Positions 3,665 through 58,524 of a stretch of 64,000 nt of DNA are shown one piece after another; within the stretch, counting starts at the first letter, position 1; each line of letters starts with the position of its first letter. The stretch covers positions 4,048,976-4,112,975 of the forward strand of contig OY781463.1 of assembly GCA_963676725.1 (NCBI GenBank). Direction: 5' to 3'. The notes beneath the pieces are model-generated. The model had not been told where the DNA came from, searched no databases, and was given only the letters and a program-made list of their open reading frames with translations. Made by a program: the position numbers and the translations under genes. This DNA comes from Bacteroidales bacterium. Its GTDB lineage: Bacteria; Bacteroidota; Bacteroidia; Bacteroidales; WRLA01.

Positions 3665-5524
3665 ATGAACAAGAGAGTAAGATCTTTATTATGCCTCGCT
3701 GTATTGCTCACATTAACCATTCACCTGAGGAGTGAATGTATTGACATCGCGGAAAAATATCAGGAAAAAAACATCATCATTCTCCATTCTTATCATCAAG
3801 GGCTTGAGTGGACAGATAATATTTCCGAAGGCATTTTGGATGCTTTTAAAGATTGCCCTGAATTCAATCTGGTATTTGAATATATGGACACCAAAAGAAA
3901 CAGCTCCGACAGCTATCTTTTAGAATTGAAATCTTTCTTGGAGATAAAAAAACAAAAAATCCCAATTGCCGGCATCATAGCATCTGATAATGCAGCTTAT
4001 GATTTTCTTACAGACTATGGAACACCCTTTTATAAAGACGCTCCAATTGTGTTTTGTGGTGTAAATAAAGCAGACACTAGTCGTATTCGCCCTTTTAGCA
4101 ACTATTATCTATTTCGCGAAACAGCAGATCATCTTGCCAACCTCAATGCCATTTCTCAAATTTTCCCCGAAAAAGACACAATTGTTATCATTAACGACAA
4201 TACGCTCACCGGGCAAGCCATTCGAATGGAGCTCGAAGATGCTCTTTCACAATATCATCAAAAACAGCATATTAAATTCCTCTCCTCTTTCACACTTCAA
4301 GAATTAAAATCAGAGGTTGCAAAGCTTAGCGATGCCAATATAATTTATCTACTCGTTGTGAATCAGGATAAAAACGGTAAATTTATTTCCTATCGCAACG
4401 GCATCAAACAGATACAATCAGCTACGGATTTGCCCATTTTTGGATCTTGGGATTTTTACCTGAACAAAGGCCTCTTTGGCGGCAAAATTACATCCGGATA
4501 CCAACAGGGGATGCTGGCAGCACAATTACTTAAAAGAATGATCAAAGACAGCAGCTTTAATCCGGAGAAAAAGGTATATGATGTGGAAAATAAATTTATT
4601 TTCGACAATCTGGAACTGATAAAGCACAAAAAAACAAAGGAAGACCTCCCCCAAAATTGTGAAATCATCAACAAAAAAAGCAATAATACCCTGAAATATT
4701 TACTGGTATTATTGGCCGGGGCCTTTCTTCTTATTATTGTACTTATTGTACGACTCCTTATAAGAAGAAAACGGCAACATCAGCTGAAAATAATTGTTGA
4801 TGAAAAAACTGAGGAGCTTAAAAATATCATACAAAAGAAAGATGAGTTTTTCTCCATACTTGCACACGATCTTCGTTCACCACTAGGGGCCTTGATGAAT
4901 CTGAGCAAACTTCTTCTTGAGGAGGAAGCCTCTACACAGAAAGAACAAAAATCAATACAGCAACGAATTGAACGGCTTTCAACAAAAACATTTTGCCTAT
5001 TGGAAGACCTTATTTTCTGGGGGAAAATGCAATTTAAGAATGGGCCTGAACCTGACATAAGAACTTTTCGGCTGGCTCCATTGATTCAGGAGCTTACATC
5101 ACTATACAACCTAAATCGATCCAATATCACAATCAAAAACGAGATAAAAAAGGATCAGCTGATTGACTCCGACGAATTTATCTTAAAATATATAATGAGA
5201 AACTTGGCACAAAATGCCATTAAATACAGCCATAAAAATGGCAAGATTATTATTGGAGCTAAAAATGATAGTATATCATGCACAATATGGGTTCAGGATT
5301 TTGGTATTGGAATGTCGCAAAAAACCATCAACAGTATAAAAAGTGGACACCCGCTACAGACAAAAGGGAATACAGGCCAAAGTAGTTATGGCCTTGGTCT
5401 TAAAACAGTTATAAGTTATCTTAAACTACTAAAAGGGGAACTGCATATTGAAAGCGAAGAAGGGCTTGGATCAACATTTTCAATCACCTTGCCATGCAAA
5501 CTGGAGTCGTCGGCTTTACTCTAA
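3665..5524 (+). CDS. Sensor histidine kinase with a large periplasmic solute-binding-like domain
   Basis: 619 aa. It has an N-terminal signal/TM segment, a roughly 300-aa extracytoplasmic domain and a TM helix (LLVLLAGAFLLIIVLIV). The H-box is FFSILAHDLRSPL, with N and G boxes NLAQNAIKYS, DFGIGM and GLGLK. Confidence 0.85.
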   Translation: MNKRVRSLLCLAVLLTLTIHLRSECIDIAEKYQEKNIIILHSYHQGLEWTDNISEGILDAFKDCPEFNLVFEYMDTKRNSSDSYLLELKSFLEIKKQKIPIAGIIASDNAAYDFLTDYGTPFYKDAPIVFCGVNKADTSRIRPFSNYYLFRETADHLANLNAISQIFPEKDTIVIINDNTLTGQAIRMELEDALSQYHQKQHIKFLSSFTLQELKSEVAKLSDANIIYLLVVNQDKNGKFISYRNGIKQIQSATDLPIFGSWDFYLNKGLFGGKITSGYQQGMLAAQLLKRMIKDSSFNPEKKVYDVENKFIFDNLELIKHKKTKEDLPQNCEIINKKSNNTLKYLLVLLAGAFLLIIVLIVRLLIRRKRQHQLKIIVDEKTEELKNIIQKKDEFFSILAHDLRSPLGALMNLSKLLLEEEASTQKEQKSIQQRIERLSTKTFCLLEDLIFWGKMQFKNGPEPDIRTFRLAPLIQELTSLYNLNRSNITIKNEIKKDQLIDSDEFILKYIMRNLAQNAIKYSHKNGKIIIGAKNDSISCTIWVQDFGIGMSQKTINSIKSGHPLQTKGNTGQSSYGLGLKTVISYLKLLKGELHIESEEGLGSTFSITLPCKLESSALL

Positions 5525-44523: not shown

Positions 44524-46668
44524 ATGAATTCAAAACCTTCCCTTTTCAAGGCACTATTTCTATTAACTTTTCTGTTGCTATTTATTTTCAAGACAGAAAA
44601 AGCAGTATCTCAGGCGAACAATAATTTAAGCGACAGCGCTTCTGTATTTGCATGTTTAGATAGCTTAATATCTGTTGATAATGATGAAGACATCCATGCG
44701 GAAATTGATAAGCTAATACAAATAAGCCGTAACTCAGCCTGTATTCAATGCCTGCTTGAATGTTATATTAAATCAGGGATGCTCTATGAGAAAGAAAAAC
44801 AATTTGGAAAAGCTTTAGAAGACTTTAAATATGCCGTGCATCTTTCAGATAGTGCAGGAATCCCCTCGCTTCAAATGAAATCAAATAACAGAGCCGGAAA
44901 CATTCTTGAGAGAATGGGGCAACCGGAAAAAGCATTGGTCTATTTAGAAAAAGCCAGAGCTTTAGCAACTAAGCTACAAGACAGCACATCTTATTTGGAA
45001 ATCATGCTTGGCTCAGCATCAGCACAAAGGAGGTTGCAGATGTATGACCAAACGATTGAGCTCTATTTCCATCTTCTTGATTATATTAAGCACGACACGA
45101 ACAATAAAGTCCTCCCTAAAATCTATAATGGGCTAGCCATTAATTATTTAGAACTGCGACAGAAGGAAAAGGCAAGGGATCACTTCTTGAAAGCATTACA
45201 TTACGCTTATTTAGACAAGAATCCCATATATTTTAGAACAATTCTTTTTTCTAATCTATCCAATCTATACCTGAAAAATTTCGAAATGACGGATTCAGCC
45301 ATTTATTATGGAAGAATGGCTGTTCAATCTGCAGAAAAGGAAAACAACCCCTTCATTGGAGCATTCGTAAACCTTGGAAATGTTTTTGAAGAAAACGGAG
45401 ACATGGACAGTGCTTTATTCTATTATAAAAAAGCGGAAAAGCTGCCAAGCATGCAATTTTTAAATATGGAGCGAGCTGCTGTTCAGATCAATATTGGATA
45501 TATTTTATATAGAGAGAAGAATTATCCACAAGCGCTTGGCTACCTGAACAAAGGAATTATTGCTGCGCGAGAAAGCGGAAATAAGCTGTTTGAACTTATT
45601 GCACAACAAACACTTTTTCATATAGACTCCATTACAGGTAATTACCTAAGTGCCATTGCCAGACAGCAAGAAATGGCCCGATTAAATGATAGCATACAAA
45701 ACCAAAAAACCATTGACCGTGTAAACGAACTCACCATTGCCTATGAAACAGATCTTATTGAAAAAGAGAGGGATGCACTACTTCAGCAAACAACACTAAA
45801 TGAGCGCATCATAGCAAACCAGGAATATGTTATGTGGCTTTCAGGTCTCGTATCTGTGCTTCTTTTATTGATTGTACTTCTTTTTCAACGGCATAAAAAG
45901 CGTTTACGCAAAATAAACAATGAGCTGGAACAGAAAAATCAGATATTGCTTGAGCAAAAGAAAAGCCTTCAGGATCTAAACAACACGAAAGACAAATTTT
46001 TCTCCATAATTGCGCACGACCTCCGTAGTCCTTTCAATATTCTGGTTGGTTATCTTGATTTACTCGACAAAGAATTTGACGATTTTTCTGCAGATGAATT
46101 AAAAGCCATCATTAAAGAATTAAAAGGGGCGAGCAACAATACTCTTTATTTATTGGAAAACTTGCTCGAATGGGCACGGTCGCAGCGTGGCCTAATAAAG
46201 CACACCCCAATGGAGATCAACTTGAAGGACCTTGCCAAAGAAGTCCTCGAGCTGTTAAAAAACAGGGCAAATGCGAAGAATATTGATATACAGCTGGATA
46301 TTGAAGAGAGCTGCATTGTCACAGCAGATCACCATATGACCTATACTATCTTTTTAAACCTCATCAACAATGCAATTAAATTTACTCAAAAAGGAGGGCA
46401 AATAAAAATCTACTGCACAAAGCAAAAGGATGCATTAAAGGTTTGCGTTGAAGATAATGGCATAGGCATTCCAAAAGAACAGCAAGCCGGTTTAATGAGT
46501 CTGTCCAATACTTATACCACGAAAGGCACTGAAAACGAAAAAGGAACCGGATTAGGTTTAATTATGTGCCGTGATTTTATAAGCATTATGGGGGGCAAAC
46601 TTGAGTTCACCAGCGAGCCGGGCAAAGGGAGTTGCTTCTGTTTTTCTTTAGGACTCACCAAGAAATAA
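44524..46668 (+). CDS. Sensor histidine kinase with an extracytoplasmic TPR-repeat domain
   Basis: 714 aa. It has a signal peptide, about 380 aa of TPR-like repeats, a TM helix (VMWLSGLVSVLLLLIVLLF) and a coiled coil. The H-box is FFSIIAHDLRSPF, with N and G boxes NLINNAIKFT, DNGIGI and GTGLGL. Confidence 0.85.
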   Translation: MNSKPSLFKALFLLTFLLLFIFKTEKAVSQANNNLSDSASVFACLDSLISVDNDEDIHAEIDKLIQISRNSACIQCLLECYIKSGMLYEKEKQFGKALEDFKYAVHLSDSAGIPSLQMKSNNRAGNILERMGQPEKALVYLEKARALATKLQDSTSYLEIMLGSASAQRRLQMYDQTIELYFHLLDYIKHDTNNKVLPKIYNGLAINYLELRQKEKARDHFLKALHYAYLDKNPIYFRTILFSNLSNLYLKNFEMTDSAIYYGRMAVQSAEKENNPFIGAFVNLGNVFEENGDMDSALFYYKKAEKLPSMQFLNMERAAVQINIGYILYREKNYPQALGYLNKGIIAARESGNKLFELIAQQTLFHIDSITGNYLSAIARQQEMARLNDSIQNQKTIDRVNELTIAYETDLIEKERDALLQQTTLNERIIANQEYVMWLSGLVSVLLLLIVLLFQRHKKRLRKINNELEQKNQILLEQKKSLQDLNNTKDKFFSIIAHDLRSPFNILVGYLDLLDKEFDDFSADELKAIIKELKGASNNTLYLLENLLEWARSQRGLIKHTPMEINLKDLAKEVLELLKNRANAKNIDIQLDIEESCIVTADHHMTYTIFLNLINNAIKFTQKGGQIKIYCTKQKDALKVCVEDNGIGIPKEQQAGLMSLSNTYTTKGTENEKGTGLGLIMCRDFISIMGGKLEFTSEPGKGSCFCFSLGLTKK

Positions 46669-47046
46669 GAACTCTTGAATTTTATCAATTAAACTATCCA
46701 GTCGAAGCGGTTTCGATAAAAACGCATCACAACCTGCTTCATACGCCAGATGTTCTTCCCCGGAAAGCACATACGCTGTTTGTATTATAACCGGCAGATC
46801 AGGGAGTACTTCTTTAATACGCGCAGTTGCCTCATAACCATTCATCACGGGCATATCTAGATCCATCAACACTAGATCCACCTTATTGTCATCAAGAATA
46901 GTGATCGCTTCTAGTCCATTTTCTGCCCAAAGCAATAGTGCTCCTGAATTCTTCAGTGCCACTTTGAAATATAAATTACTGGTGATTGTATCCTCAACAA
47001 TCAGGATGCTTTTTCCACTCCAGTCATATTTAAAATTATCCTGCAT
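46648..47046 (-). CDS. Single-domain response regulator (last gene of the Che-like operon)
   Basis: 132 aa with IVEDT, VLMDLDMP, QTAY and SKP motifs. No output domain is present. Confidence 0.85.
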   Translation of the reverse strand: MQDNFKYDWSGKSILIVEDTITSNLYFKVALKNSGALLLWAENGLEAITILDDNKVDLVLMDLDMPVMNGYEATARIKEVLPDLPVIIQTAYVLSGEEHLAYEAGCDAFLSKPLRLDSLIDKIQEFLFLGES

Positions 47047-47054
47047 TCGTTCAA

Positions 47055-48629
47055 TTATTCAGTTGTGGGTGCATACTTATTTAAAACCTCAAAGAGCTCC
47101 AATTGTTTGAAAGGCTTAGCAATGTAATCTGTCATTCCTGCTTCAAGGAATTTTTCTTTATCGCCCTTCATTGTGTTCGCAGTCATTGCTATAATTGGAA
47201 CCGGTGTAATGATCCCTTTTTCAGATTCGAGTCGGCGAATTAGTTTTGTTGCTTCCACGCCATCCATTTCGGGCATTTGTACATCCATAAAAATAGCATC
47301 GAAACCGATCTCAAAATATTTTTCTACCGCGATTTTTCCATTATCGGCAATATAGACTTCATGCCCTAGTTTATTCAGGTGGTGTGTGGCTACTTTTTGG
47401 TTTATTTGATTGTCTTCTGCGAGCAGCAGGTTCATTTTTCGCATGATTTGCTTTTTACTTTCCTTATTTACATTTTCATTTCCAGAAGCCAAAGCCTCCT
47501 TGAAACATGCTGTAAACCAAAATTCTGAGCCCTTCCCCACTTCGCTATTTACTCCAATTTCGCCTTGCATCATCTTCGACAGGCTTTTGCAAATAGCAAG
47601 TCCTAGCCCTGTGCCTCCATATTTTCTTGTGGTTGATGAATCGGTTTGGGAAAAAGAGCGGAACAGCTTTTTTTTCCCGTCCTCAGAGATTCCAATGCCA
47701 GTATCGCTTATCCCAAAGTACAATTTCAGGGACTGATCCTCTTTATTTTCAATTTTTGCATGCAAAGACACACCGCCCTGATGTGTAAATTTTATGGCAT
47801 TATTTAATAAGTTGATCAATATTTGTTTTAAACGGGTTGGGTCTCCTATTATAGCTTCCGGGATATCTTCTGCAATATCCAATTTTAGCCATAGGCCCTT
47901 ATCCTTTGTTTTAAAGGACAATATTTTAAGAACGGCATCAATTTCCTTGCGGATATTGAATCGGATATTTTCAAATTCCAGTTGGCCCGATTCAATTTTT
48001 GAAAAATCGAGGATATCGTTAATGATTGTCAATAGGTTTTCACTGGACACATCAACAATATCAAGATACTCTTTTTGATTTTCATCGAGTTGTGTGCGTT
48101 TCAGGATTTCCACCATCCCAACAATGCCGTTCATGGGGGTTCTAATTTCATGCGACATATTTGCAAGGAACATTGATTTGGCACTGGCTGCCGATTCGGC
48201 CATTTCTTTGGCTTTAATTAATTCTTGCTTTGCAAAACGAAGATCCAGGTGCACCTGAGCCCTTGCTTTAAGTTCTTCTGTATTAAAAGGTTTTTGCACA
48301 TAATCCACAGCCCCTGCATTAAAGCCTTTCACGAGGCTGTCGGCATCTGTTTGGCTGGTCATAAAAATAATTGGAATATCAGCAGTTGCAGGATTTGCTT
48401 TGAGTTGCCTGCACACCTCAAAGCCATCAATGTCGGGCATAACAACATCCAATAGGATCAGATCAAAACGGTTTGCACGTGCCCTAGACAGTGCTGTTCG
48501 GCCATTACGAGCCGAAGCCGTTTTATAATGAGGGACCTCTCCAAGAATTGACTGCATGAGCTCAATATTACTCTGAACATCATCAACAATCAAAATCTTT
48601 GCTGTTTTATTGTTTGTATTCATATTCAA
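47055..48629 (-). CDS. Hybrid histidine kinase, REC-HisKA-HATPase-REC
   Basis: 524 aa. It has an N-terminal receiver ([18 protein letters not shown]), the H-box [13 protein letters not shown], the N box [11 protein letters not shown] boxes DTGIGI and GTGLGL, and a C-terminal receiver ([18 protein letters not shown]). Confidence 0.88.
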
Positions 48630-48634
48630 ATCAA

Positions 48635-50191
48635 TTAATGCAAATATTCTTCCAGCACATCAAATAGTCGGTTTAACTGTAAAGGCTTTAACAGAAAGCC
48701 ATCAAACCCACTTTCTCTTGCTTTTACACGCTCATTATTCATTGTTAAGGCTGTTAGGGCAACAATAGGGATCTTAGGATAATTTGCTTTAATCCAAGCT
48801 GTTGCTTCGAATCCGTTCATTACCGGCATTTGCAAATCCATGATCACGAGATCAAATTTTTTCCGACCTTCTTTAAATTGATTTACTGCCTGCATACCGT
48901 CGATGCATTTTACAATACGAAGACCAGTTCCCATTAATGCCTGTTGCAAATACTCATGAACCATAAGGACATCATCTGCCACAAGTATTGTTTTTCCTTT
49001 CCAACGCAGTGCATCAATTTTCTCGTGCCTAGCAATCACATCTTCCTTTTGCCCAATATTTCCCTTTGCAAGAATATCAGAAAACTGGACATAAAAAACA
49101 CTACCTCCATTTTCCCTTGACTCAAACCACAGGCGGGCATTCATCATTTCCGCTAAATTTTTGGAAATAGAAAGCCCTAAACCGGCGCCTCCGGCATCGT
49201 AAATACTTTGATGGTTTAAACGCGTAAAACGATGAAAAATATCTTCACTTTTGTTTTCAGGGATACCAATACCTGTATCGCGAAGAGAAAAACGCACTTT
49301 ATTATTTCCGGGCATTTCTACGCCCATTTCCACTTCTCCTTTCAAGGTATATTTAAAGGCATTGCTTATCAGGTTCTCGAGTATCTGTCTTAAGCGATGT
49401 TCGTCTGTATTAATAAATACATCTTTTAAAGCGCCTGCATCTTTATAAATAAAATCGATATGGGCACGGCTCATGTTATTTCTTTGAACAAGAAATTTAT
49501 TATACAGCTCGTCCATTAATTCGCCGAGGGAAAACACATGTTCACTAATTTGGATTGCTCCTGTTTCGAGTTTAGAAATATCCACGATATCGTCAATCAA
49601 GCTTAAGAGATGAGCCCCGCTTTTACTGATAATATTGAGAAAGCTGTCCCTTTCCTCTTCGGAAAGTTGCTTTTGGGTAAGCAATTCGGTAAAGCCAATT
49701 ATTGCATTCATTGGCGTACGTATTTCATGGGACACATTTGCAAGAAAGGCTGATTTGAGTTGTTCGGCTTTTCTGGCAATTTCTTTTTCCCTGACTAACT
49801 GCTCATAGGTTCTTTTTAATTCGAGGTGTAATTTAACCCTAGCCAACAACTCTAAATCATTAAAAGGCTTATGAATATAATCAACACCTCCGGATTCAAA
49901 CCCCTCTAATGTGCTTTTAGTATCGTTACGAACAGTAATAAAAAGCACAGGAATATGCGCCTTTTCGGGAATCGCTTTTATTCTTCTGCACACTTCATAA
50001 CCGTTAAGATCGGGCATAATAACGTCAAGCAGTATAAGGTCAAAGTCATTTCCCCGCACTTTATTGAGTGCTTGTAGTCCATTATGAGCAATAACAGTTT
50101 TATATCCCTGGCTGCTTAACACAGTATCCATCAAGGAAGCAGAGCTTTCCTGATCGTCGATAATAAGTATCTTCACTGTGTCTTCTTTCAT
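48635..50191 (-). CDS. Hybrid histidine kinase, REC-HisKA-HATPase-REC (tandem paralog)
   Basis: 518 aa with the same architecture as its neighbour. The H-box is [13 protein letters not shown], followed by [16 protein letters not shown] and GAGLGL. Receivers lie at both ends ([16 protein letters not shown]). Confidence 0.88.
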
Positions 50192-50201
50192 TTTGATAAT
50201 C

Positions 50202-51272
50202 TTATAATTTATTTAAAAAAGCTGCAATTTGAGTTAAAGGCAGGATATGGTCCACGGCATTTTTCTTTATCGCTTCTTTAGGCATACCAAAAACAACACA
50301 ACTTTCTTCATCCTGAGCAATCGTTTTTGCTCCGGATTGTTTCAGTTCCAGTAAGCCCTGCGCTCCATCATCGCCCATACCGGTAAGCAAAACCCCAATT
50401 GCTTTTTCTCCAGCATTTCTTGCTCCGCTGCGAAAGAGAACATCAACAGCCGGTCGATGCCTGTTTACGAGTGGGCCATCTTTTATTTGCACATAATAAC
50501 CTCTTTCGTTGTGTTTTAAGATCAAATGAAAATTACCCGGAGCAACGAGGGCTTCCCCAATTCCTACGGTATCATTATTTTTTGCTTCTTTCACGCTTAA
50601 TGGGGATATACGGTTTAAACGCTCTGCAAAAGAGCGGGTAAAATCGGCAGGCATATGCTGTACAATTACCACTCCCGGCCCATTGGCACTCATATTTGAC
50701 AAGATATGGGCAATTGCTTCAGTTCCTCCGGTCGAAGCACCAATTAAAATAATTGGGTCATTCGTCCTGTTTTTCAATGACTTTTCTTTGGGCGAAGGCA
50801 GCATCACATCTGCAGAATGTTTTGGTTCTGCGGAATGTTGAATACTTTTCATGTGTTTACTTAAACGAGCAATTGCTGCAGATTTTACAGCATCTGTAAT
50901 CATTATGCGGGATTCTTCAAAAAACTCCCTTGTCGTCATTTTTGGTTTCGGAATAACCGCCATAGCTCCGTATTCAAGCGCTTTTAAAGCAGCAACAGAA
51001 CCATCAGATGCATAGCCTGAAATAATAACAACCGGTATTGGATGCTGCTTCATTAAACGTTTCAGAAAAGTAAGCCCATCCATGCGTGGCATTTCAATAT
51101 CCAATGTAATAACATCGGGCACCTCTTTCTGAATCATTTTAACTGCCTGATAAGGATCTGATACAGTATCAATTACACTAATAACAGGATCCGCCTCCAG
51201 TAATTCCTTTAATGATTGACGCACCAATGCAGAATCATCTACAATAAGAACGCGCAATTTATCTCCGATCAT
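50202..51272 (-). CDS. cheB: Protein-glutamate methylesterase/glutaminase CheB (REC plus esterase)
   Basis: 356 aa. It has a receiver (VLIVDDS, ITLDIEMP) and an esterase domain with GASTGG, HMP and LTGMGDDG motifs. Confidence 0.92.
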   Translation of the reverse strand: MIGDKLRVLIVDDSALVRQSLKELLEADPVISVIDTVSDPYQAVKMIQKEVPDVITLDIEMPRMDGLTFLKRLMKQHPIPVVIISGYASDGSVAALKALEYGAMAVIPKPKMTTREFFEESRIMITDAVKSAAIARLSKHMKSIQHSAEPKHSADVMLPSPKEKSLKNRTNDPIILIGASTGGTEAIAHILSNMSANGPGVVIVQHMPADFTRSFAERLNRISPLSVKEAKNNDTVGIGEALVAPGNFHLILKHNERGYYVQIKDGPLVNRHRPAVDVLFRSGARNAGEKAIGVLLTGMGDDGAQGLLELKQSGAKTIAQDEESCVVFGMPKEAIKKNAVDHILPLTQIAAFLNKL

Positions 51273-51292: not shown

Positions 51293-51772
51293 TTATTTAT
51301 TTCCCTGCTTTTTGATAAATTTCATCTTCACTAAACCCGTTTGGGTATTAAAGATAATCTTTCTTCCGTAATTACCACCTGTTGAAGCCCCTAAAATTTT
51401 TATATTTTCTTGTTTTAAAAGCTCATAAGCGGTTTGCACATTGCGGTCGCCAATATTGAAAACATCATTTTCGGTATTAATTACCCTGCCCCCTCCAAAA
51501 ATCTTGGCAATAATATCATTGCGCCGTGACCCGTTTTTTGCCAATAAAGCAAGGCATTTTAAAACAGCAATATTCCCATACTTTGGAGATTGAAGGCCCT
51601 GCCCGTTCCATAATGGCAGCATATAATGACAGATTGCACCGGCTTTAAGGTGTGGGTCATAAAAACAAATAGACACACAAGAACCTAATAGCGTGCTCAC
51701 TTCAGCCTCACTAGAAAAATAAATTTCGCAAGGCTTCAGGAAAATATTTTTTATTTCTTTATCGCCTATCAA
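51293..51772 (-). CDS. cheD: Chemoreceptor glutamine deamidase CheD
   Basis: 159 aa with LLGSCVSICFYD and ICHYMLP motifs (the catalytic Cys and His contexts). Its TTG start overlaps the upstream stop as TTGA. Confidence 0.85.
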   Translation of the reverse strand: MIGDKEIKNIFLKPCEIYFSSEAEVSTLLGSCVSICFYDPHLKAGAICHYMLPLWNGQGLQSPKYGNIAVLKCLALLAKNGSRRNDIIAKIFGGGRVINTENDVFNIGDRNVQTAYELLKQENIKILGASTGGNYGRKIIFNTQTGLVKMKFIKKQGNK

Positions 51773-52647
51773 AACAATTCCTCATCAGTAAACAGTGCAT
51801 CTTCATCTTCTTCCTCATTCGTTAGTTCGGGCAAAACAACAGTAAATGTACTTCCTTGCCCTTCTTTGCTCTGCAAACGGAGTTCGCCATCGAGAAGCTC
51901 AACGAGGGCTTTTGTAACAGACAGACCCAAGCCTGAACCTGTATTTAGGCTATGTATGCTCTCATCAAGTTTTTTGAAGCGCTGGTAAATTCGTTGCAGG
52001 TCTTTTTCGCTAATACCCACACCATTATCTTTGATATGGATTTCGATGTGATTTTCAAAACATTCGATATGAATTTGCACCGACGAATCAATGCGCGAAA
52101 ATTTAAGGGCATTACTAAGTATATTACTGATTATCAAATCAATTCTTCGCTTATCTGTTCCAAAAGAAAAAGCTTTTTGCATATACTCATTCTTTATGAG
52201 GCGATAATCTATTTTAATGCGGTTTTTATCGGTCTCAAACTTATGGTTCGCCACAATACTCTGGATAAGCTCGTCAATATTGGTCCGGCTAGGCTCCAGT
52301 GATGTTTCCCCGGCCTCAATTCGTGCAGCTTCAAAAATATTATTCATTTGAAAATCAAGGTAAAATGCTTCAGAATAAATTAAATCGCCCATTTTACGAG
52401 CCACCTGACCTTCATCATCGTGCAATTTTTGGATACTACCGGCCAGTCCTAAAATCGATGCAAAAGGATTTATTAGTTCATTAGTTATATTTGAGATAAA
52501 ATGACTTTTCATTGCTTCAGATTGCCGAAGCTGTTCATTAATCAGCACCAATTCTGAATTTAAGGACGCGATCTCGGCTTTTAAGCCGGCATACTCTGAG
52601 AGACGCTCGCTTAGGTAAGCAATTAGTTCTTTATCTTTTTTATCCAT
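51769..52647 (-). CDS. Soluble histidine-kinase-like protein lacking the canonical phospho-acceptor His
   Basis: 292 aa with no TM helix and an N-terminal coiled coil. Its degenerate H-box is HFISNITNELINPF, compared with [13 protein letters not shown] in the neighbouring kinases. The HATPase boxes are intact (ISNILSNALKFS, DNGVGIS, GSGLGLS). It ends in an acidic tail, EEEDEDALFTDEELF. Confidence 0.75.
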   Translation of the reverse strand: MDKKDKELIAYLSERLSEYAGLKAEIASLNSELVLINEQLRQSEAMKSHFISNITNELINPFASILGLAGSIQKLHDDEGQVARKMGDLIYSEAFYLDFQMNNIFEAARIEAGETSLEPSRTNIDELIQSIVANHKFETDKNRIKIDYRLIKNEYMQKAFSFGTDKRRIDLIISNILSNALKFSRIDSSVQIHIECFENHIEIHIKDNGVGISEKDLQRIYQRFKKLDESIHSLNTGSGLGLSVTKALVELLDGELRLQSKEGQGSTFTVVLPELTNEEEDEDALFTDEELF

Positions 52648-52648
52648 G

Positions 52649-53521
52649 TTACATGCTGTTTTTTTGATAAATAGTCGGTAAAATATTTTGCAATGGAATG
52701 TGCATATTGATTAAAGATTCAGAATGCCCAATAAAAAGGTAGCCTCCATTTTTTAAGCTTTCTGCAAATTTCATACTGATTTCTTTCTGGATGGAGCGAT
52801 CAAAGTAGATTAAAGTATTTCTACAGAAAATCAGATCATAGGCGGCAATTTTATCGTTTGGAAAGTTCTCCAAAAGGTTGAAAATTGAAAAGACTACCCG
52901 TTTTCTGATTTCAGAAGAAATTCTTATCAGGTTTTTCCTATGATCCTTAGAGCGAAGCAAGTATTTATGCCGAAACCTTTCCGGAATATCCATAGCCTTT
53001 TCGCCCTGATAAACAGCTTTTTGTGCTGTATTTAACACATTATAGGAAACATCGCTGGCATGTATGATAAAGCCGGCAGGCCATTTATCCTGCAACATAT
53101 CCTGCAACAAGAATGCAAGGCTGTAAGGTTCTTCACCGGTTGAGCAGCCCGCACTCCACACCATAAGAGGCTTGGAATCCTTGCGTTTTACCAGAATCTC
53201 AGGAATAATTGTTCGCTCAAGAATTTCAAAATGCCGAAATTCCCTGAAGAAGCTTGTTTTATTTGTTGAAACAACATCGATCAGTTCAGTAGGTTCTTTG
53301 CGAGCTCCTTCTGCGCTAAACAGATAGCGAATGTATTCAGAATAGCCACTCATATTTAAGGCAATGAGCCTTTTACGCAGGCGCCCCTGAAGCATTGTCT
53401 TTTTCCCCGGGGGCAGTTTGATTCCAAAGCGTCCTTCAATATATTGGCTCAGGCGCGCAAACTCCTCATCATTTAATGGGCTATAATCTGCAAATACCTG
53501 ATTTTTATCCATATACACCAA
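52649..53521 (-). CDS. cheR: Chemotaxis protein methyltransferase CheR
   Basis: 290 aa. It has the N-terminal helical domain (FARLSQYIEGRFGIKL), the SAM-binding segment VWSAGCSTGEEPYSLA, and FCRNTLIYFD. Confidence 0.9.
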   Translation of the reverse strand: MVYMDKNQVFADYSPLNDEEFARLSQYIEGRFGIKLPPGKKTMLQGRLRKRLIALNMSGYSEYIRYLFSAEGARKEPTELIDVVSTNKTSFFREFRHFEILERTIIPEILVKRKDSKPLMVWSAGCSTGEEPYSLAFLLQDMLQDKWPAGFIIHASDVSYNVLNTAQKAVYQGEKAMDIPERFRHKYLLRSKDHRKNLIRISSEIRKRVVFSIFNLLENFPNDKIAAYDLIFCRNTLIYFDRSIQKEISMKFAESLKNGGYLFIGHSESLINMHIPLQNILPTIYQKNSM

Positions 53522-53610: not shown

Positions 53611-55263
53611 TTAAAAACGCTCAAATTCGCTATCTAGGGAATCTCCGAGATCAATATGAACCCCTTTGTTTTTCCCTGGAGCTTCATTATTAAATTGCGC
53701 ACGAAATGTTTGTGCTTTATTTGGCTTTGATTCTTTTCTTTTGATGTTTTGTTTCCCAATCTGGCGGCTTCGGAAATAGGAAATAACATCCAGAAGCTGA
53801 TCCGCTTGAGAACTCAGCTCCTCTGCACTTGTAGCCATTTCTTCTGAAGCGGCAGCATTTTGTTGCGTAACTTCATTTAATTGCTGGATGGCATTATTAA
53901 TCTGCTCTGCTCCGGCATTTTGTTCCATACTTGCTGCGGCGATTTCCTGCACAAGCTGAGAAGTCATCTGAATATCAGGCACAATCGTCTTCATTATTGC
54001 CGATGCATCTTCAGCAATATCGACACTTTTACGGGAAATTTCATCGATTTCGGCAGCAGCCAGTTTACTGCGTTCTGCCAATTTGCCCACTTCTGCGGCC
54101 ACAACACCAAAACCTTTGCCATGTTCGCCTGCCCTGGCAGCTTCAACAGCAGCATTTAAAGCAAGTATATTTGTTTGAAAGGCGATATCACCAATGATAC
54201 TAATTTTATTCGCAATTGATTTCATTGCCTCCATTGTTGTATGCACTTTTGTACTTCCAGCTTCAATATCTTTGGCTGCTTTAGCAGCAATTATCTCTGT
54301 TTGTTTTGCATTATCAGTGTTTTGCTGAATATTTGCTGTCATTTCTTCAACAGAGGAACTCACTTCTTCAACAGAGGAAGCCTGTTCGGAGGCGCCCTGA
54401 CTAATATCCTGAGATGTATTGCTTAGCTGCATACTTGCATCGGTTACATTCTGTGAAGCACCACTAACATTAACCAGCACTTCTTTAACCCTTGCGAGCA
54501 TTTGCCGGAAGGAAATAACGAGTTGGCCCATTTCATCTTTTTGGTCAAAATCGAATTCAGCATCAAGGTTGCCATTGCCTACTTCAGAAACAAATGCCGA
54601 AATACCTCGAACACTGCTTCCAATATTAAAAGCAATTAGATAGGCGAGCAGACCGCCAAATAGCACAATAAAAAGTGCCACAAAAAAGATAACCCATTCT
54701 ATCTCATTAGCTAGCTTAAACATTCCTTCATCGGTTTCAAGGCTTTGACTCACAACAGATTCCATATCTGCCAGCAAATTACCCACTTGATTTAACAGAG
54801 GCAAGGTTCGTGTTTGATAGATATCAAGAGCTTCTTTATAGTCAGTATCGTTTCCGCTGGCCAATAAATTTTTAATCTTCATTGCGCTTTGATGGAGTTC
54901 TTGGTGGGGTTTTTCTATTTCCCGGAGATATGATCTTAGCTCGGGAACTAATAAAACAGCTTTTTCGCGCTCACTTCCATAATACCATTCCCCGAGGCCG
55001 CACTGATGCGCATCTGTTTGCACAATCAAATCGTTATTGTTATTGATAATATCCTTAGAAAGCTGCAATGCCCAATTTAAATGATCCTCATGCTTTTGTA
55101 TAAATAGAGCTTTCAGGTTATTTCCTTCCAGAGCTTCTTCAGCTTTATCTACTAATTTATTAATCCCTATAATAGTGCCAATGGAGAGAGCAATGATCAT
55201 CACCAATGCAATACCAAACGACAGAATAAATTTATGCCGGATTTTTAAGTCTTTGAATCTCAT
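53611..55263 (-). CDS. Methyl-accepting chemotaxis protein (2 TM, CZB-like periplasmic domain, HAMP, C-terminal pentapeptide)
   Basis: 550 aa. TM1 is about aa 12-34 and TM2 about aa 189-211. It has a HAMP domain and the conserved MA hairpin [34 protein letters not shown] long flexible tail ends in SEFERF. Confidence 0.92.
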
Positions 55264-55281: not shown

Positions 55282-55758
55282 TTAATTTTCTAATTCAGTT
55301 TTTATAAAGAGGGTGTCATCGCGGGAGAACAAATTATCAATATCCAAAATCATAACGAAGAAATCGTTCAAGCGCATTACGCCTTGGATCAGAGAGGAAT
55401 TGAACCTTTTCCCCAAATCAGGAAAATCAATGATGTTGCTTTCATCGAATCGGTACACTTGCTTCACACGATCAACAATCATCCCTAGTTCAAAAGACCC
55501 ATCGTTAAAATTGATTTCGACAACAATAATGCATGTTTCCCTTGTATTTTCGATGGTTTCCAACCCAAATTTTGCTCGCGTATCAACAACAGGAAGCACA
55601 TTGCCCTGATGATTGATTACGCCTTTCACAAAAGGAGGAGATTGGGGAACCTTAGTAAGTGTTTGCAATTCCAATATCTTCAAAACCCTTTGCACATTCA
55701 ATGCAAAAAGCTCCTCATTTATTTGAAACACCAGATAGGAATCAGACTTTTGTTCCAT
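55282..55758 (-). CDS. cheW: Coupling protein CheW
   Basis: 158 aa with a CheW-like fold signature (YLVFQINEELFALNVQRV...GVINHQGNVLPVVD). Confidence 0.9.
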   Translation of the reverse strand: MEQKSDSYLVFQINEELFALNVQRVLKILELQTLTKVPQSPPFVKGVINHQGNVLPVVDTRAKFGLETIENTRETCIIVVEINFNDGSFELGMIVDRVKQVYRFDESNIIDFPDLGKRFNSSLIQGVMRLNDFFVMILDIDNLFSRDDTLFIKTELEN

Positions 55759-55760
55759 AG

Positions 55761-57830
55761 CTATTCCTTATTAATAAATTTTTTAACAATATTGTCTATA
55801 TCAATGACCAGAGCGATGCTTCCATTTCCCAATATCGTAGCTCCGGAAAAAACCTCATGTTTTCTTAAATACTTGCCTAATGGTTTGAGAACGGCCTGAT
55901 GTTCACCAACAACATTGTTCACTTTTAATGCAATAAGCTTTTCTTCCTGCTTTACGGTAACCACATAACTTTCACCATTAGACGCATCTTCACAAAGGAG
56001 AAGAGGCAGATCAACAAAAGGCAATTGTGCATCATGAATATGAATTAAGCCATCAGTAAATTTTGACATATGAACATCATCGCCCCGATAGACTGTATCG
56101 ATAATACTCATTGGGAAAATCACATTATTTGACCCAATAGTTACAAGCAGGCCATCAAGAATAGAGAGGCTAAGAGGAAGTTTCAAGGTAAAAACAGATC
56201 CTTTGCCTTTCTCTGAGCTAATATCAAGGCTTCCCCTTAATTCTTCAAGTTTTCGGCCAACAACATCCATTCCTACTCCCCTTCCGGACACATCCGTAAT
56301 TTCCTTTGCAGTAGAAAAGCCGGGTTTCATAATGAGTTGCCAGGTTTCTTTTTCTGATAATATTGTTGATTCGGTGATCATCCCACTTTCGATAGCTTTT
56401 GCCCGAATGCGTAGTGCATCAAGTCCGCGGCCATCGTCTTTAAGGGAAATATATACATTTGTTCCTGAATACCAAGATTTTATCATAATTTGCCCTGCAG
56501 CAGGTTTTCCCATGGCAATCCGTTCCTCTGTGCTTTCAATTCCATGATCGATGCTGTTTCTTAAAATATGCATTATTGGATCAGCCAATTCTTGGATTAT
56601 ATTTTTATCCAATTCAGTATCAGTACCTTCAGTAAGCAAATTCACTTCCTTATTGAGTGCCGCACCTAAGTCCCTTGCCAACCTTCTGAAGCGTGTCAAC
56701 AGGCTATTCAGGGGCACGAGGCAAATATCAAATGCATTTTCCCTTAAGCGACGTGTAAGCTTCTGAATAGATTCTGCCAAAGCGATCAATTCATTATCTT
56801 GACGCATATCTGCTATATTCGCAAATCTAGCCTGAACAGTTACCATTTCTGAAACCACATTCATTAATTGATCGAGTTTTTGGGAAGAGACCCTTATGGT
56901 ACTAATCTGCTGTCCAAAAGCAGTTTCCAGGATTTTTTTCTCCGAATCCAATTCCTCTGAATTCTTCTTTTGAAGTGTTTCTTTTTTCTCTACAACAGAT
57001 TCCTGAGGGGACTGCTCCAATGCATGCTTTTCGATTGCTATATATTTCTTTAGGCAATCCTCTCCAAAAGAGAGTATTTCTAGTATTTGTTCCTTTTGGA
57101 CAGAAAAAGCTGTTTGTTCCGTTTTTTCGATCGTAAGCGCACAATCGTCTTCAACAAAAATAAATACATCACGAATATCGCTTTCCGAAGCATCAGTACA
57201 TAAGAACATTCGCCATGAAATACTACAAGCCTGTGGGTTCAATACAGAAAAGGCAGGAATTTTTGATGTGTCTGCATAGCAGATCATCTCACCCATTCCT
57301 GCGAGTTCATCGATGAGATAGAGTGGACTTGTTCCATTTTCCAAAATATGCTCGTCAGGTATAAATTCGATATACCATACGAATTGTTCTATTTGGTCTA
57401 TTTTAGGGGAAAGCTCCCCAGATGAAATAGAAATTGCCGCCTTTTGCTGTATTTGTTGGTCGGGCTTTCCTAGTATTTGTGTTATTTGCTCAACGAGAAG
57501 CCCTTCATCTAATTCTTTTTCGGGTTGCTCGTTCAATAAGGCTTTAAGATGATCAACGGCATTGAGGCTCAGCTGAGTAATTTGCTGGCCGGGATATAAT
57601 TTATCATCTCGGATTTTTTGGTAAAGCGACTCTAAATGGTGCGTAAACTTACTGATGCGGTCGAAGCCAAACATTGCCCCACTACCTTTCAGTGAATGCA
57701 TCAAGCGGAAAATTTCATTCACACAAGCTTTGTCTTCCGGATTTTGATCGAGACGCAACAAAAGCTCTTCAAGCTGCGCAATAAACTCTGCAGCTTCTTC
57801 CCTGAATTTCTGCTTGAATTCTTCTTTCAT
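55761..57830 (-). CDS. cheA: Chemotaxis histidine kinase CheA
   Basis: 689 aa. It has the Hpt/P1 domain with HSLKGSGAMFG, a dimerisation segment (IRVSSQKLDQLMN), the HATPase domain (LRNSIDHGIE, DDGRGL, GRGVGMD) and a C-terminal CheW-like P5 domain. The roughly 170 aa between P1 and P3 are unassigned. Confidence 0.93.
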   Translation of the reverse strand: MKEEFKQKFREEAAEFIAQLEELLLRLDQNPEDKACVNEIFRLMHSLKGSGAMFGFDRISKFTHHLESLYQKIRDDKLYPGQQITQLSLNAVDHLKALLNEQPEKELDEGLLVEQITQILGKPDQQIQQKAAISISSGELSPKIDQIEQFVWYIEFIPDEHILENGTSPLYLIDELAGMGEMICYADTSKIPAFSVLNPQACSISWRMFLCTDASESDIRDVFIFVEDDCALTIEKTEQTAFSVQKEQILEILSFGEDCLKKYIAIEKHALEQSPQESVVEKKETLQKKNSEELDSEKKILETAFGQQISTIRVSSQKLDQLMNVVSEMVTVQARFANIADMRQDNELIALAESIQKLTRRLRENAFDICLVPLNSLLTRFRRLARDLGAALNKEVNLLTEGTDTELDKNIIQELADPIMHILRNSIDHGIESTEERIAMGKPAAGQIMIKSWYSGTNVYISLKDDGRGLDALRIRAKAIESGMITESTILSEKETWQLIMKPGFSTAKEITDVSGRGVGMDVVGRKLEELRGSLDISSEKGKGSVFTLKLPLSLSILDGLLVTIGSNNVIFPMSIIDTVYRGDDVHMSKFTDGLIHIHDAQLPFVDLPLLLCEDASNGESYVVTVKQEEKLIALKVNNVVGEHQAVLKPLGKYLRKHEVFSGATILGNGSIALVIDIDNIVKKFINKE

Positions 57831-58192
57831 CGCAGCACCTTTTTAATAATAGCAATAAGTCTATCCTCCTGAAACGGCTTTGTTAGCCAACCGGTTGCCC
57901 CTTTGCTTCTGGCTTCCTTTTTGACATGAATTCCTGTTTCAGTACTTAAAAACAAAATTGGGATATGCTTGTATCCATCTAATTTACGCACTTCAGCAAT
58001 AAGTTCCATGCCATTCATATTGGGCATATGCAAATCCGTCATCAACAAGTCGATGGTACGGCCATCAAAATATGTCAACGCATCACGGCCATCCATTGCT
58101 TTCATCACATTATAGCCGTTTCGATCTAAAGTGAACTCGAGCATTTCACGAATACTTGCAGAATCATCAACAATCAGAATATTTTTTTTCAT
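57827..58192 (-). CDS. cheY: CheY-like single-domain response regulator
   Basis: 121 aa with ILIVDDS, LLMTDLHMP, FLST and GWLTKPF motifs. It has 4-nt overlaps with both neighbours. Confidence 0.88.
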   Translation of the reverse strand: MKKNILIVDDSASIREMLEFTLDRNGYNVMKAMDGRDALTYFDGRTIDLLMTDLHMPNMNGMELIAEVRKLDGYKHIPILFLSTETGIHVKKEARSKGATGWLTKPFQEDRLIAIIKKVLR

Positions 58193-58524
58193 ATTTGGCT
58201 CCCTGACAGTTCATCAAACAAAACATCTAAAGCATTATTACAAATAAGAATGTATAGGTCGTCCCTCAGAACAGCTTCAATATTTGTTTGCAGCTTTTTT
58301 TCAGCACGTTCTTTTTTTATTGCAAATAGCATCTGCAAAAAAGCAATATCCACACTTTCCACCTCTGACAATCGTATATAAAGCGGCTTACTTTCACCAC
58401 TTACTTTTTCCGCTTCGGCACTTATGTCCCTAATGGAAGAAATACCAAGTTCTCCTTTGTAAACCAATAGGTTACAATGAGCGACATCATTATTAAACAA
58501 ACTATGTTCGGCAGAAAATCCCAT
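58189..58524 (-). CDS. STAS-domain protein (anti-sigma-antagonist fold), first gene of the Che-like operon
   Basis: 111 aa. The pattern LVYKGELGISSIRDI...YIRLSEVESVDIAFLQML matches the STAS beta-alpha layout. The position of the phosphorylatable Ser (DSSG in SpoIIAA) reads DIAF. Confidence 0.65.
   Translation of the reverse strand: MGFSAEHSLFNNDVAHCNLLVYKGELGISSIRDISAEAEKVSGESKPLYIRLSEVESVDIAFLQMLFAIKKERAEKKLQTNIEAVLRDDLYILICNNALDVLFDELSGSQI

Follow-up and report, generated by a model that had tools for sequence, protein, structure and literature searches.

An asparagine in place of the phospho-acceptor histidine in a conserved HisKA-type protein of Bacteroidales/Marinilabiliales chemosensory operons

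Introduction

What is the role of a protein built like a sensor histidine kinase, with an intact ATP-binding domain, when the histidine that should accept the phosphate is an asparagine? The question is raised by a gene in a 64,000-nucleotide stretch of a Bacteroidales bacterium genome (GTDB lineage Bacteria; Bacteroidota; Bacteroidia; Bacteroidales; WRLA01; GenBank assembly GCA_963676725.1, contig OY781463.1, forward-strand positions 4,048,976 to 4,112,975), hereafter the window, in whose own numbering all positions are given. The gene, here called pHK, lies between cheR and cheD in a chemotaxis (Che) operon, and an earlier note, made from the sequence alone, had described the substitution. 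We find that the asparagine is invariant among relatives of pHK, and the best explanation of our results is that these relatives form a family of conserved kinase-dead HisKA-type proteins that is a fixed component of a chemosensory operon in Bacteroidales/Marinilabiliales. The parts of the gene on which the question turns are the following.

51769–52647, minus strand: pHK open reading frame, a soluble His-less HisKA/HATPase_c protein of 292 amino acids (aa) with an ATG start and its stop codon at 51769–51771
52462–52503, minus strand: altered H-box from H49 to F62, HFISNITNELINPF, inside the family's most conserved segment
52480–52482, minus strand: Asn56 codon, AAT, in the phospho-acceptor His column, from direct reading and alignment
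52468–52479, minus strand: E57-L-I-N60, the retained E/D-x-x-T/N motif, followed by invariant P61 (motif function: PMC3510030)
52501–52503, minus strand: His49, seven residues N-terminal to N56, kept in close relatives and replaced in 12/40 divergent members

Results

Asparagine occupies the acceptor column

The H-box of pHK reads FISNITNELINPF (52462–52500, minus strand). Four other kinases of the window, with which the earlier note had compared it by eye, have H-boxes reading FFSILAHDLRSPL at 4847–4885 (plus strand) and FFSIIAHDLRSPF at 45997–46035 (plus strand), with two further ones at 49709–49747 and 48132–48170 (both minus strand); all four were found as quoted there, and the AAT codon of N56 was confirmed from the DNA. 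That Asn stands in the acceptor column was borne out by phmmer alignments to PDB entries, where the pHK segment fisNItNElinPf lies opposite fvsNVsHELrtPl of WalK (4u7n, E 4e-27) and fiaNIsHELrtPl of HK853 (3dge, E 1.4e-24). Both alignments span pHK residues 38–281, and N56 is therefore at the acceptor position.

Comparison with the Pfam profiles, which had been proposed as a check on this placement, gave a sub-threshold HisKA match over residues 46–113 (25.0 bits, the gathering score being 26.9) and no match to HisKA_2, HisKA_3 or HWE at E ≤ 10, so that pHK is of the HisKA type. Its DHp domain is homologous to those of HisKA-type kinases, as the phmmer matches to WalK and HK853 and a Foldseek template modelling (TM) score of 0.77 to HK853 indicate, but the acceptor His that such kinases have is missing: Asn56 fills the column and no other His is invariant. 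Across the family, the box NE(I/L)(I/V)NP(F) corresponds to the HEIKNPL box of NtrB/CrdS in which Asn has replaced His and either Ile or Val has replaced Lys, and it no longer has the Arg that canonical HELRTP boxes carry at H+3.

The substitution is invariant in the family

A search of 5.8 billion proteins with pHK gave 536 matches at E ≤ 1e-5. Among the 120 of these that were listed, the proteins are ~300 aa long, come from Bacteroidales, Salinivirgaceae and related metagenome-assembled genomes, share 42–64% identity with pHK and mostly have no Pfam HisKA match on record. When one genome per species was scanned, at least 536 species-level genomes from Bacteroidales/Marinilabiliales proved to carry relatives, and 80 of the loci were fetched. 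These 80 include Marinilabilia, Thermophagus, Anaerophaga, Geofilum, Alkaliflexus, Natronoflexus, Alkalitalea, Labilibacter, Carboxylicivirga and Breznakibacter, as well as Salinivirgaceae, Williamwhitmania and rumen or faecal Bacteroidales.

The species-genome scan used the peptide FISNITNE as its pattern, and the resulting close set therefore favours N56. To correct this bias, phmmer was run with pHK residues 71–292 only against 1.84 billion representative proteins, which yielded 45 short members of the family; in 40 of these the H-box is covered. In the 186 distinct close sequences, N56, E57, N60, P61 and F62 were each found in 186/186 and H49 in 185/186. The unbiased set gave the following counts.

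N56: 40/40, no replacements
N60: 40/40, no replacements
P61: 40/40, no replacements
E57: 37/40, replaced by Q (two) and A (one)
H49: 28/40, replaced by N (six), Q (two), K, Y, S and D

The earlier note had suggested asking whether orthologues keep both N56 and H49; the former is invariant, while the latter is retained by close relatives and often replaced in divergent ones, with 213/225 family sequences carrying it overall. No alignment column reaches 98% His, and the family thus has no invariant His. Across the 226 distinct sequences of the family in which the H-box is covered, N56 is invariant, and the pattern therefore cannot be due to chance. Moreover, the H-box and α1 segment (residues 44–73) is the most conserved region of the protein, with a mean entropy of 0.65 bits compared to 1.74 for the catalytic/ATP-binding (CA) domain.

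These results bear on the simplest account of the locus, in which pHK is a decaying or strain-specifically inactivated kinase gene, or a sequencing artefact. The missing His is the only observation that speaks for it, and the account can be practically dismissed when set against an identical protein on several independent assemblies, N56 in at least 226 distinct sequences, an H-box that is the best conserved part of the protein and a gene order kept in 80/80 loci. On synteny, N56 invariance and H-box conservation we rejected strain-specific decay. The argument of the earlier note that Asn is no sequencing slip is upheld by the orthologues, whose retention of N56 rules out strain-specific decay too.

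Many family members (e.g. P0027, P0072, P0074, P0076, P0079 and P0099) are named 'HAMP domain-containing (sensor) histidine kinase' by NCBI. The window protein has no Pfam match to HAMP and the acceptor His is absent from the family, so these names appear to be annotation carry-over.

The nucleotide-binding domain is intact and the C-terminal tail is acidic

Apart from the H-box, the protein is divided as follows, the helices and the disorder being those of an AlphaFold2 model.

52429–52641, minus strand: predicted long helix, residues 3–73, comprising an N-terminal coiled-coil extension and DHp α1
52312–52410, minus strand: predicted DHp α2, residues 80–112, with the conserved motif EAFxLDFQxxNIFxAAxIEAG (model and conservation)
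51826–52155, minus strand: HATPase_c catalytic/ATP-binding domain, residues 165–274 (Pfam E 1.1e-26)
51772–51822, minus strand: disordered acidic tail, residues 276–292, ending in E-x-F-COOH (model and alignment)

An intact ATPase domain had been proposed for pHK, and both the HATPase_c match and a check of the nucleotide-binding residues agree. The N box (N175 and N179), the G1 box (D207-x-G-x-G211) and the G2 box (G237-x-G-L-G-L242) are complete, with N175, N179, D207, G209, G211, G237, G239, G241 and L242 each present in 231/231 family members, and R223 (230/231) and F224 (231/231) are kept as well, such that the family has all of the N, G1, F and G2 boxes of a CA domain. Since orthologues keep N56 and the ATPase domain is intact, the function of pHK is independent of His56. 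One position of the N box varies: residue 182 (52102–52104), the Lys of NAxK, is Asn or Glu in 39/231 members, for example in the rumen-type NAINFNR, which could mean looser phosphate contacts in one subclade.

The model (mean predicted local distance difference test score, pLDDT, 77.9) has a DHp hairpin of the four-helix-bundle type at residues 44–113 and an α/β CA domain whose ATP lid (residues 222–238) is disordered. Its best fold matches in the PDB are HK853 in complexes with RR468 (E ~1e-17; TM 0.77, target-normalised), and DivL, a pseudokinase (4q20), is also a top match (TM 0.76–0.80). Pfam detected HisKA and HATPase_c only, with no sensor or PAS domain, and no transmembrane segment was seen.

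The acidic C-terminal tail reported earlier, EEEDEDALFTDEELF, is present, and pLDDT falls below 50 at residues 280–292. Among family tails, the C-terminal residue is Phe in 214/226 and the residue at −2 is Glu in 181/226, with acidic residues at −3 to −6 and a Phe-Phe pair near −6 to −8 at variable spacing. Judging from this pattern, the tail probably tethers the protein to a partner. It resembles the chemoreceptor pentapeptide (NWETF type), a tether for CheR/CheB, in being acidic, disordered and ended by E-x-F-COOH. However, the pentapeptide is defined by aromatic residues at positions 2 and 5 (PMC7390727), and in pHK tails only position 5 conforms (Phe in the same 214/226); position 2 is Asp or Glu in 158/226, the commonest residues there being non-aromatic, and we rejected the tail as a true pentapeptide of the chemoreceptor type on that ground.

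pHK holds a fixed place in the operon

The Che operon of the window runs on the minus strand and, in the order of transcription around pHK, contains the following genes.

58189–58524, minus strand: first gene of the operon, encoding a STAS_2-like protein (sub-threshold Pfam score of 24.1 bits, cutoff 29.2)
57827–58192, minus strand: cheY-like single receiver, candidate substrate of pHK
55761–57830, minus strand: cheA (Hpt, H-kinase_dim, HATPase_c and CheW domains)
55282–55758, minus strand: cheW
53611–55263, minus strand: methyl-accepting chemotaxis protein (MCP; CZB zinc-binding, HAMP and MCPsignal domains) with the C-terminal pentapeptide EFERF
52649–53521, minus strand: cheR, directly upstream of pHK with a 1-nt spacer
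51293–51772, minus strand: cheD, whose TTG start overlaps the TGA stop of pHK (TTGA)
50202–51272, minus strand: cheB (receiver domain, REC, and methylesterase)

The 1-nt distance to cheR and the stop/start overlap with cheD had both been noted earlier and are confirmed, and an independently made gene call in public assemblies agrees on the cheR-pHK-cheD arrangement. Mapping the Che proteins of the window onto the fetched loci gave the order cheR-pHK-cheD-cheB in 80/80, as far as the contigs reach, and the usual order of the whole operon in the family is STAS-cheY-cheA-cheW-(mcp)-cheR-pHK-cheD-cheB. Between the pHK stop and the point where cheD is projected to begin, the spacing ranges from −11 to 14 nt; its median is 1 nt, and 76/78 loci stay at ≤10 nt. 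CheY and the REC domain protein CheB are the only receiver proteins in most loci, and the operon's CheY and CheD keep their active-site residues.

A STAS-like open reading frame of ~100–125 aa lies upstream of cheY in ~60/62 loci. When aligned by eye to SpoIIAA, the STAS protein of the window reads V-D-I-A-F, with Ile at the position of SpoIIAA Ser58, and those of other loci read D-[I/L/V/M/T]-[T/S/A]-F, with I, L, V, M or T at that position. Because the STAS gene is conserved upstream of cheY, a non-phosphorylating interaction between its product and pHK may be possible.

In Marinilabiliaceae, several loci (L018 5287–5631, L058 5666–5995, L024 5698–6027 and others) have an extra open reading frame of ~110 aa between cheY and cheA, which carries a CheA-P1-like motif, H-x-x-x-G-T-G/A-P-M-L/V-G-F, and looks like a stand-alone HPt protein. 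No stand-alone HPt was present in the clusters of the window's clade or of Salinivirgaceae.

Cluster-linked MCPs of related loci end in [N/E/D]-[Y/F]-E-x-[F/Y] in 50/54 cases, most often NYEKF. These C-termini, including that of the window MCP, are pentapeptides that tether CheR/CheB, and the Che system therefore appears to be pentapeptide-dependent; of their sequence, pHK tails have only the terminal E-x-F-COOH. The CheR of the window has Salmonella CheR as its best match (1af7/1bc5, E 2e-42), and the alignment is ungapped over the β-subdomain loop that binds the pentapeptide in 1bc5, which at the level of this loop is consistent with a pentapeptide-dependent CheR.

Discussion

A candidate phosphatase of a chemotaxis receiver

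If pHK works without His56, the residues that it retains suggest at what. We tentatively favour a reading in which pHK is a kinase-dead, nucleotide-binding HisKA protein that would dock and dephosphorylate CheY~P or CheB~P through E57-x-x-N60. In HisKA proteins, the Thr or Asn at H+4 of the H-E/D-x-x-T/N motif is needed solely for the phosphatase activity (PMC3510030), and in pHK this position is the invariant N60, followed by the invariant P61. Mutation of the phosphorylatable His abolishes phosphotransfer and leaves the phosphatase reaction in place (PMC7005713), and CrdS H371A still cuts CrdA~P's half-life from 53.5 to 2.6 min; among dedicated CheY~P phosphatases, CheX uses ExxN and CheZ uses DxxxQ (PMC3510030). 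Since the pHK box is that of NtrB/CrdS with His and Lys replaced, the acceptor has been lost and the phosphatase residue is retained and absolutely constrained.

In the proposed mechanism, a pHK dimer would dock the phosphorylated receiver (CheY or the REC domain of CheB) on DHp α1 in the manner in which HK853 docks RR468, and E57 and N60, possibly aided by the amide of N56, would position the water that hydrolyses the aspartyl phosphate. Because His56 is absent, pHK could neither autophosphorylate nor take phosphate back, and it would act as a one-way sink. The phosphatase activity of EnvZ and NtrB is nucleotide-stimulated, and by analogy the conserved ATP/ADP pocket of pHK would serve as a cofactor or regulatory site. 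In the operons of Bacillus and Thermotoga, the slot directly upstream of cheD is occupied by cheC; as pHK holds that slot and is tightly coupled to cheD, it is suggested to stand in for CheC and may also bind, act on or act with CheD. No CheC-, CheX- or CheZ-like open reading frame was found inside the clusters, to which the search was confined.

A wider version of this proposal is that the family constitutes an unrecognised core chemotaxis class, namely a HisKA-derived phosphatase of CheY~P or CheB~P that is gated by ATP/ADP, takes the place of CheC/CheX/CheZ in non-flagellated gliding Bacteroidales, is physically coupled to CheD and is tethered by its pentapeptide-like acidic tail. We consider this possible but doubtful; if true, signal termination and receptor adaptation would be joined in one protein.

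Several observations weigh against a receiver phosphatase. The acceptor His enhances phosphatase activity in CrdS and HK853, and a His-less enzyme might therefore be slow. E57 is ~99% conserved (228/231) though it is dispensable for the HisKA phosphatase reaction, and N175, also invariant, is the N-box polar residue which we take to be implicated in autophosphorylation chemistry. Taken together, the constraint on E57, N175 and the ATP contacts seems to exceed the obvious needs of a cofactor site and fits phosphate transfer or hydrolysis from ATP. We know of no HisKA protein that acts on a CheY fed by CheA. Mutual information with average product correction (APC), computed between DHp columns and CheY, CheB, CheW, CheR, CheD and CheA over 52–79 paired loci, did not discriminate between partners: the top scores were no lower for the control proteins (z 4.3 for CheY and 5.6 for CheB, compared to 6.9 for CheW), with too few sequences and confounding by phylogeny.

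Alternative explanations

The same residues could serve binding instead of catalysis. Under a DivL-type explanation, pHK would be a pseudokinase whose DHp and CA domains only sense phosphorylated CheY or CheB by binding, without speeding dephosphorylation, and the signal would be passed to CheD, to CheR/CheB or to the receptor array through the coiled coil and the tail, for instance through sequestration of CheD in the manner of CheC in B. subtilis. DivL is reported to be a sensor of a phosphorylated response regulator (PMC4211667), and pHK has DivL (4q20) among its closest matches in both fold and sequence; the conservation maximum at the DHp surface, the conserved tight genetic coupling to cheD and the conserved E-x-F tail, which suggests a docking function, agree with such a role. 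pHK has no output domain of the DivL kind (PAS domains), however, and simple binding would not need the invariance of N60-P61 and of every ATP-binding residue, and we regard this explanation as rather unlikely. Lower still we place an active phosphotransferase that uses ATP on another protein, or an ATPase switch, whose targets would be a His in trans (CheA P1 or the HPt of Marinilabiliaceae) or a Ser/Thr of a partner, as in RsbW/SpoIIAB, plant phytochromes and PDK-type GHKL kinases. The full conservation of the nucleotide-binding residues (N175, N179, D207, G209, G211 and G237 to L242, all 231/231), the ~99% conservation of E57 at the general base position, the conserved STAS gene and the stand-alone HPt frame between cheY and cheA in Marinilabiliaceae can be cited for it. 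Yet the STAS protein has no Ser/Thr at the Ser58 position in the window and most loci, HATPase_c_2 matches only below threshold (18.1 bits against a cutoff of 27.4) in a protein with a full DHp domain, the clusters showed no PP2C partner, those of the window's clade and of Salinivirgaceae do not contain the stand-alone HPt, and the Arg at H+3 of HELRTP is lost. A kinase of the RsbW/SpoIIAB type with the STAS protein as its target, which the earlier note had raised, is not favoured, and we rejected it on domain architecture and the missing Ser.

The earlier note had also raised His49, which precedes N56 by one heptad and shares its face of the helix, as a shifted acceptor that would make pHK a true autokinase. 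Its presence in 185/186 close relatives and 213/225 sequences overall and the intact CA domain are in keeping with this, but the set unbiased for the H-box has it in only 28/40, with N, Q, K, Y, S or D instead, and H49-less members (with N, D or Y; three confirmed) still adjoin cheD-cheB, those with D and Y being preceded by cheR as well. The next residue, F50, is an invariant Phe and not acidic, so the general base needed for HisKA autophosphorylation is absent at His49, and no His is invariant in the family. A shifted acceptor is accordingly very unlikely, and H49 was rejected in that role on family-wide conservation and gene context.

Comparison with known systems

With bifunctional HisKA proteins (HK853-RR468, EnvZ and NtrB/CrdS), pHK has in common the DHp hairpin and the HATPase_c fold; HK853 and WalK are its best sequence matches (E ~1e-27 to 1e-24), the HK853-RR468 complex is its best fold match, and the H+4 Asn and the next Pro of the NtrB/CrdS box are retained. 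It differs from them in that no member has the acceptor His, which excludes kinase activity or phosphotransfer through that residue, in having no sensor or transmembrane domain, in its acidic C-terminal tail ending in Phe, and in being encoded in a Che operon and not beside a cognate DNA-binding response regulator. Caulobacter DivL is likewise a HisKA/CA protein with a conserved residue other than His in the acceptor column, though this residue is Tyr in DivL and Asn in pHK. DivL is also large and membrane-anchored, signals to CckA with PAS domains, which pHK does not have, and is found outside chemotaxis operons, whereas the ATP pocket is strictly conserved in pHK.

Among the CheY~P phosphatases (CheC/CheX/FliY and CheZ), the slot of pHK directly upstream of cheD matches the cheC-cheD arrangement, and E57-x-x-N60 resembles the ExxN of CheX/CheC in placing an acidic and an amide residue on one helix face, a likeness at the level of the motif that ordinary HisKA E-x-x-N boxes also show. 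The folds are unrelated, with no Pfam match of pHK to CheC or CheX at E ≤ 10, and pHK has a nucleotide-binding domain; we infer functional equivalence to CheC/CheX. pHK resembles RsbW/SpoIIAB in its GHKL ATP-binding fold, its independence of His and the conserved STAS gene in its operon. Unlike that single-domain protein, pHK has a DHp domain (residues 44–113) and HATPase_c instead of HATPase_c_2, its operon's STAS protein has no phosphorylatable Ser, and the cluster showed neither a PP2C nor a sigma factor.

Significance

Pseudokinases and phosphatase-only kinases are known in kind; what is new is the context, a place that is fixed within a Che operon, and a full-text literature search returned no account of a His-less kinase from che operons of Bacteroidetes. 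In this family, a kinase-null HisKA/CA module that keeps the phosphatase residue and the nucleotide pocket has become fixed by natural selection, which offers a natural separation-of-function variant for the study of HisKA phosphatase activity and nucleotide binding without the His. pHK is also a fixed part of a poorly understood chemosensory system of Bacteroidales/Marinilabiliales, bacteria that are gliding and not flagellated. As the acceptor His is missing from every family member and HAMP was not detected in the window protein, the public names 'sensor histidine kinase' and 'HAMP domain-containing histidine kinase' are probably misleading in several hundred annotations.

Other genes near the operon

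Downstream of cheB, the window carries a tandem pair of hybrid kinases, each REC-HisKA-HATPase_c-REC with a canonical SHEIRTP box, and a single-domain receiver (46648–50191, minus strand). These genes were also found in loci of the window's clade (L001–L004, L033, L076 and L087) and not in most other loci of the family; they may be the output phosphorelay of the Che system. In Marinilabiliaceae, a second, divergent pair of CheR-like and CheB-methylesterase-like sequences (28–31% identity) lies ~2.5–5 kb downstream of cheB in L018 (14919–17019), L058 (14657–16720) and ~25 other loci, and may represent a CheB/CheR fusion protein.

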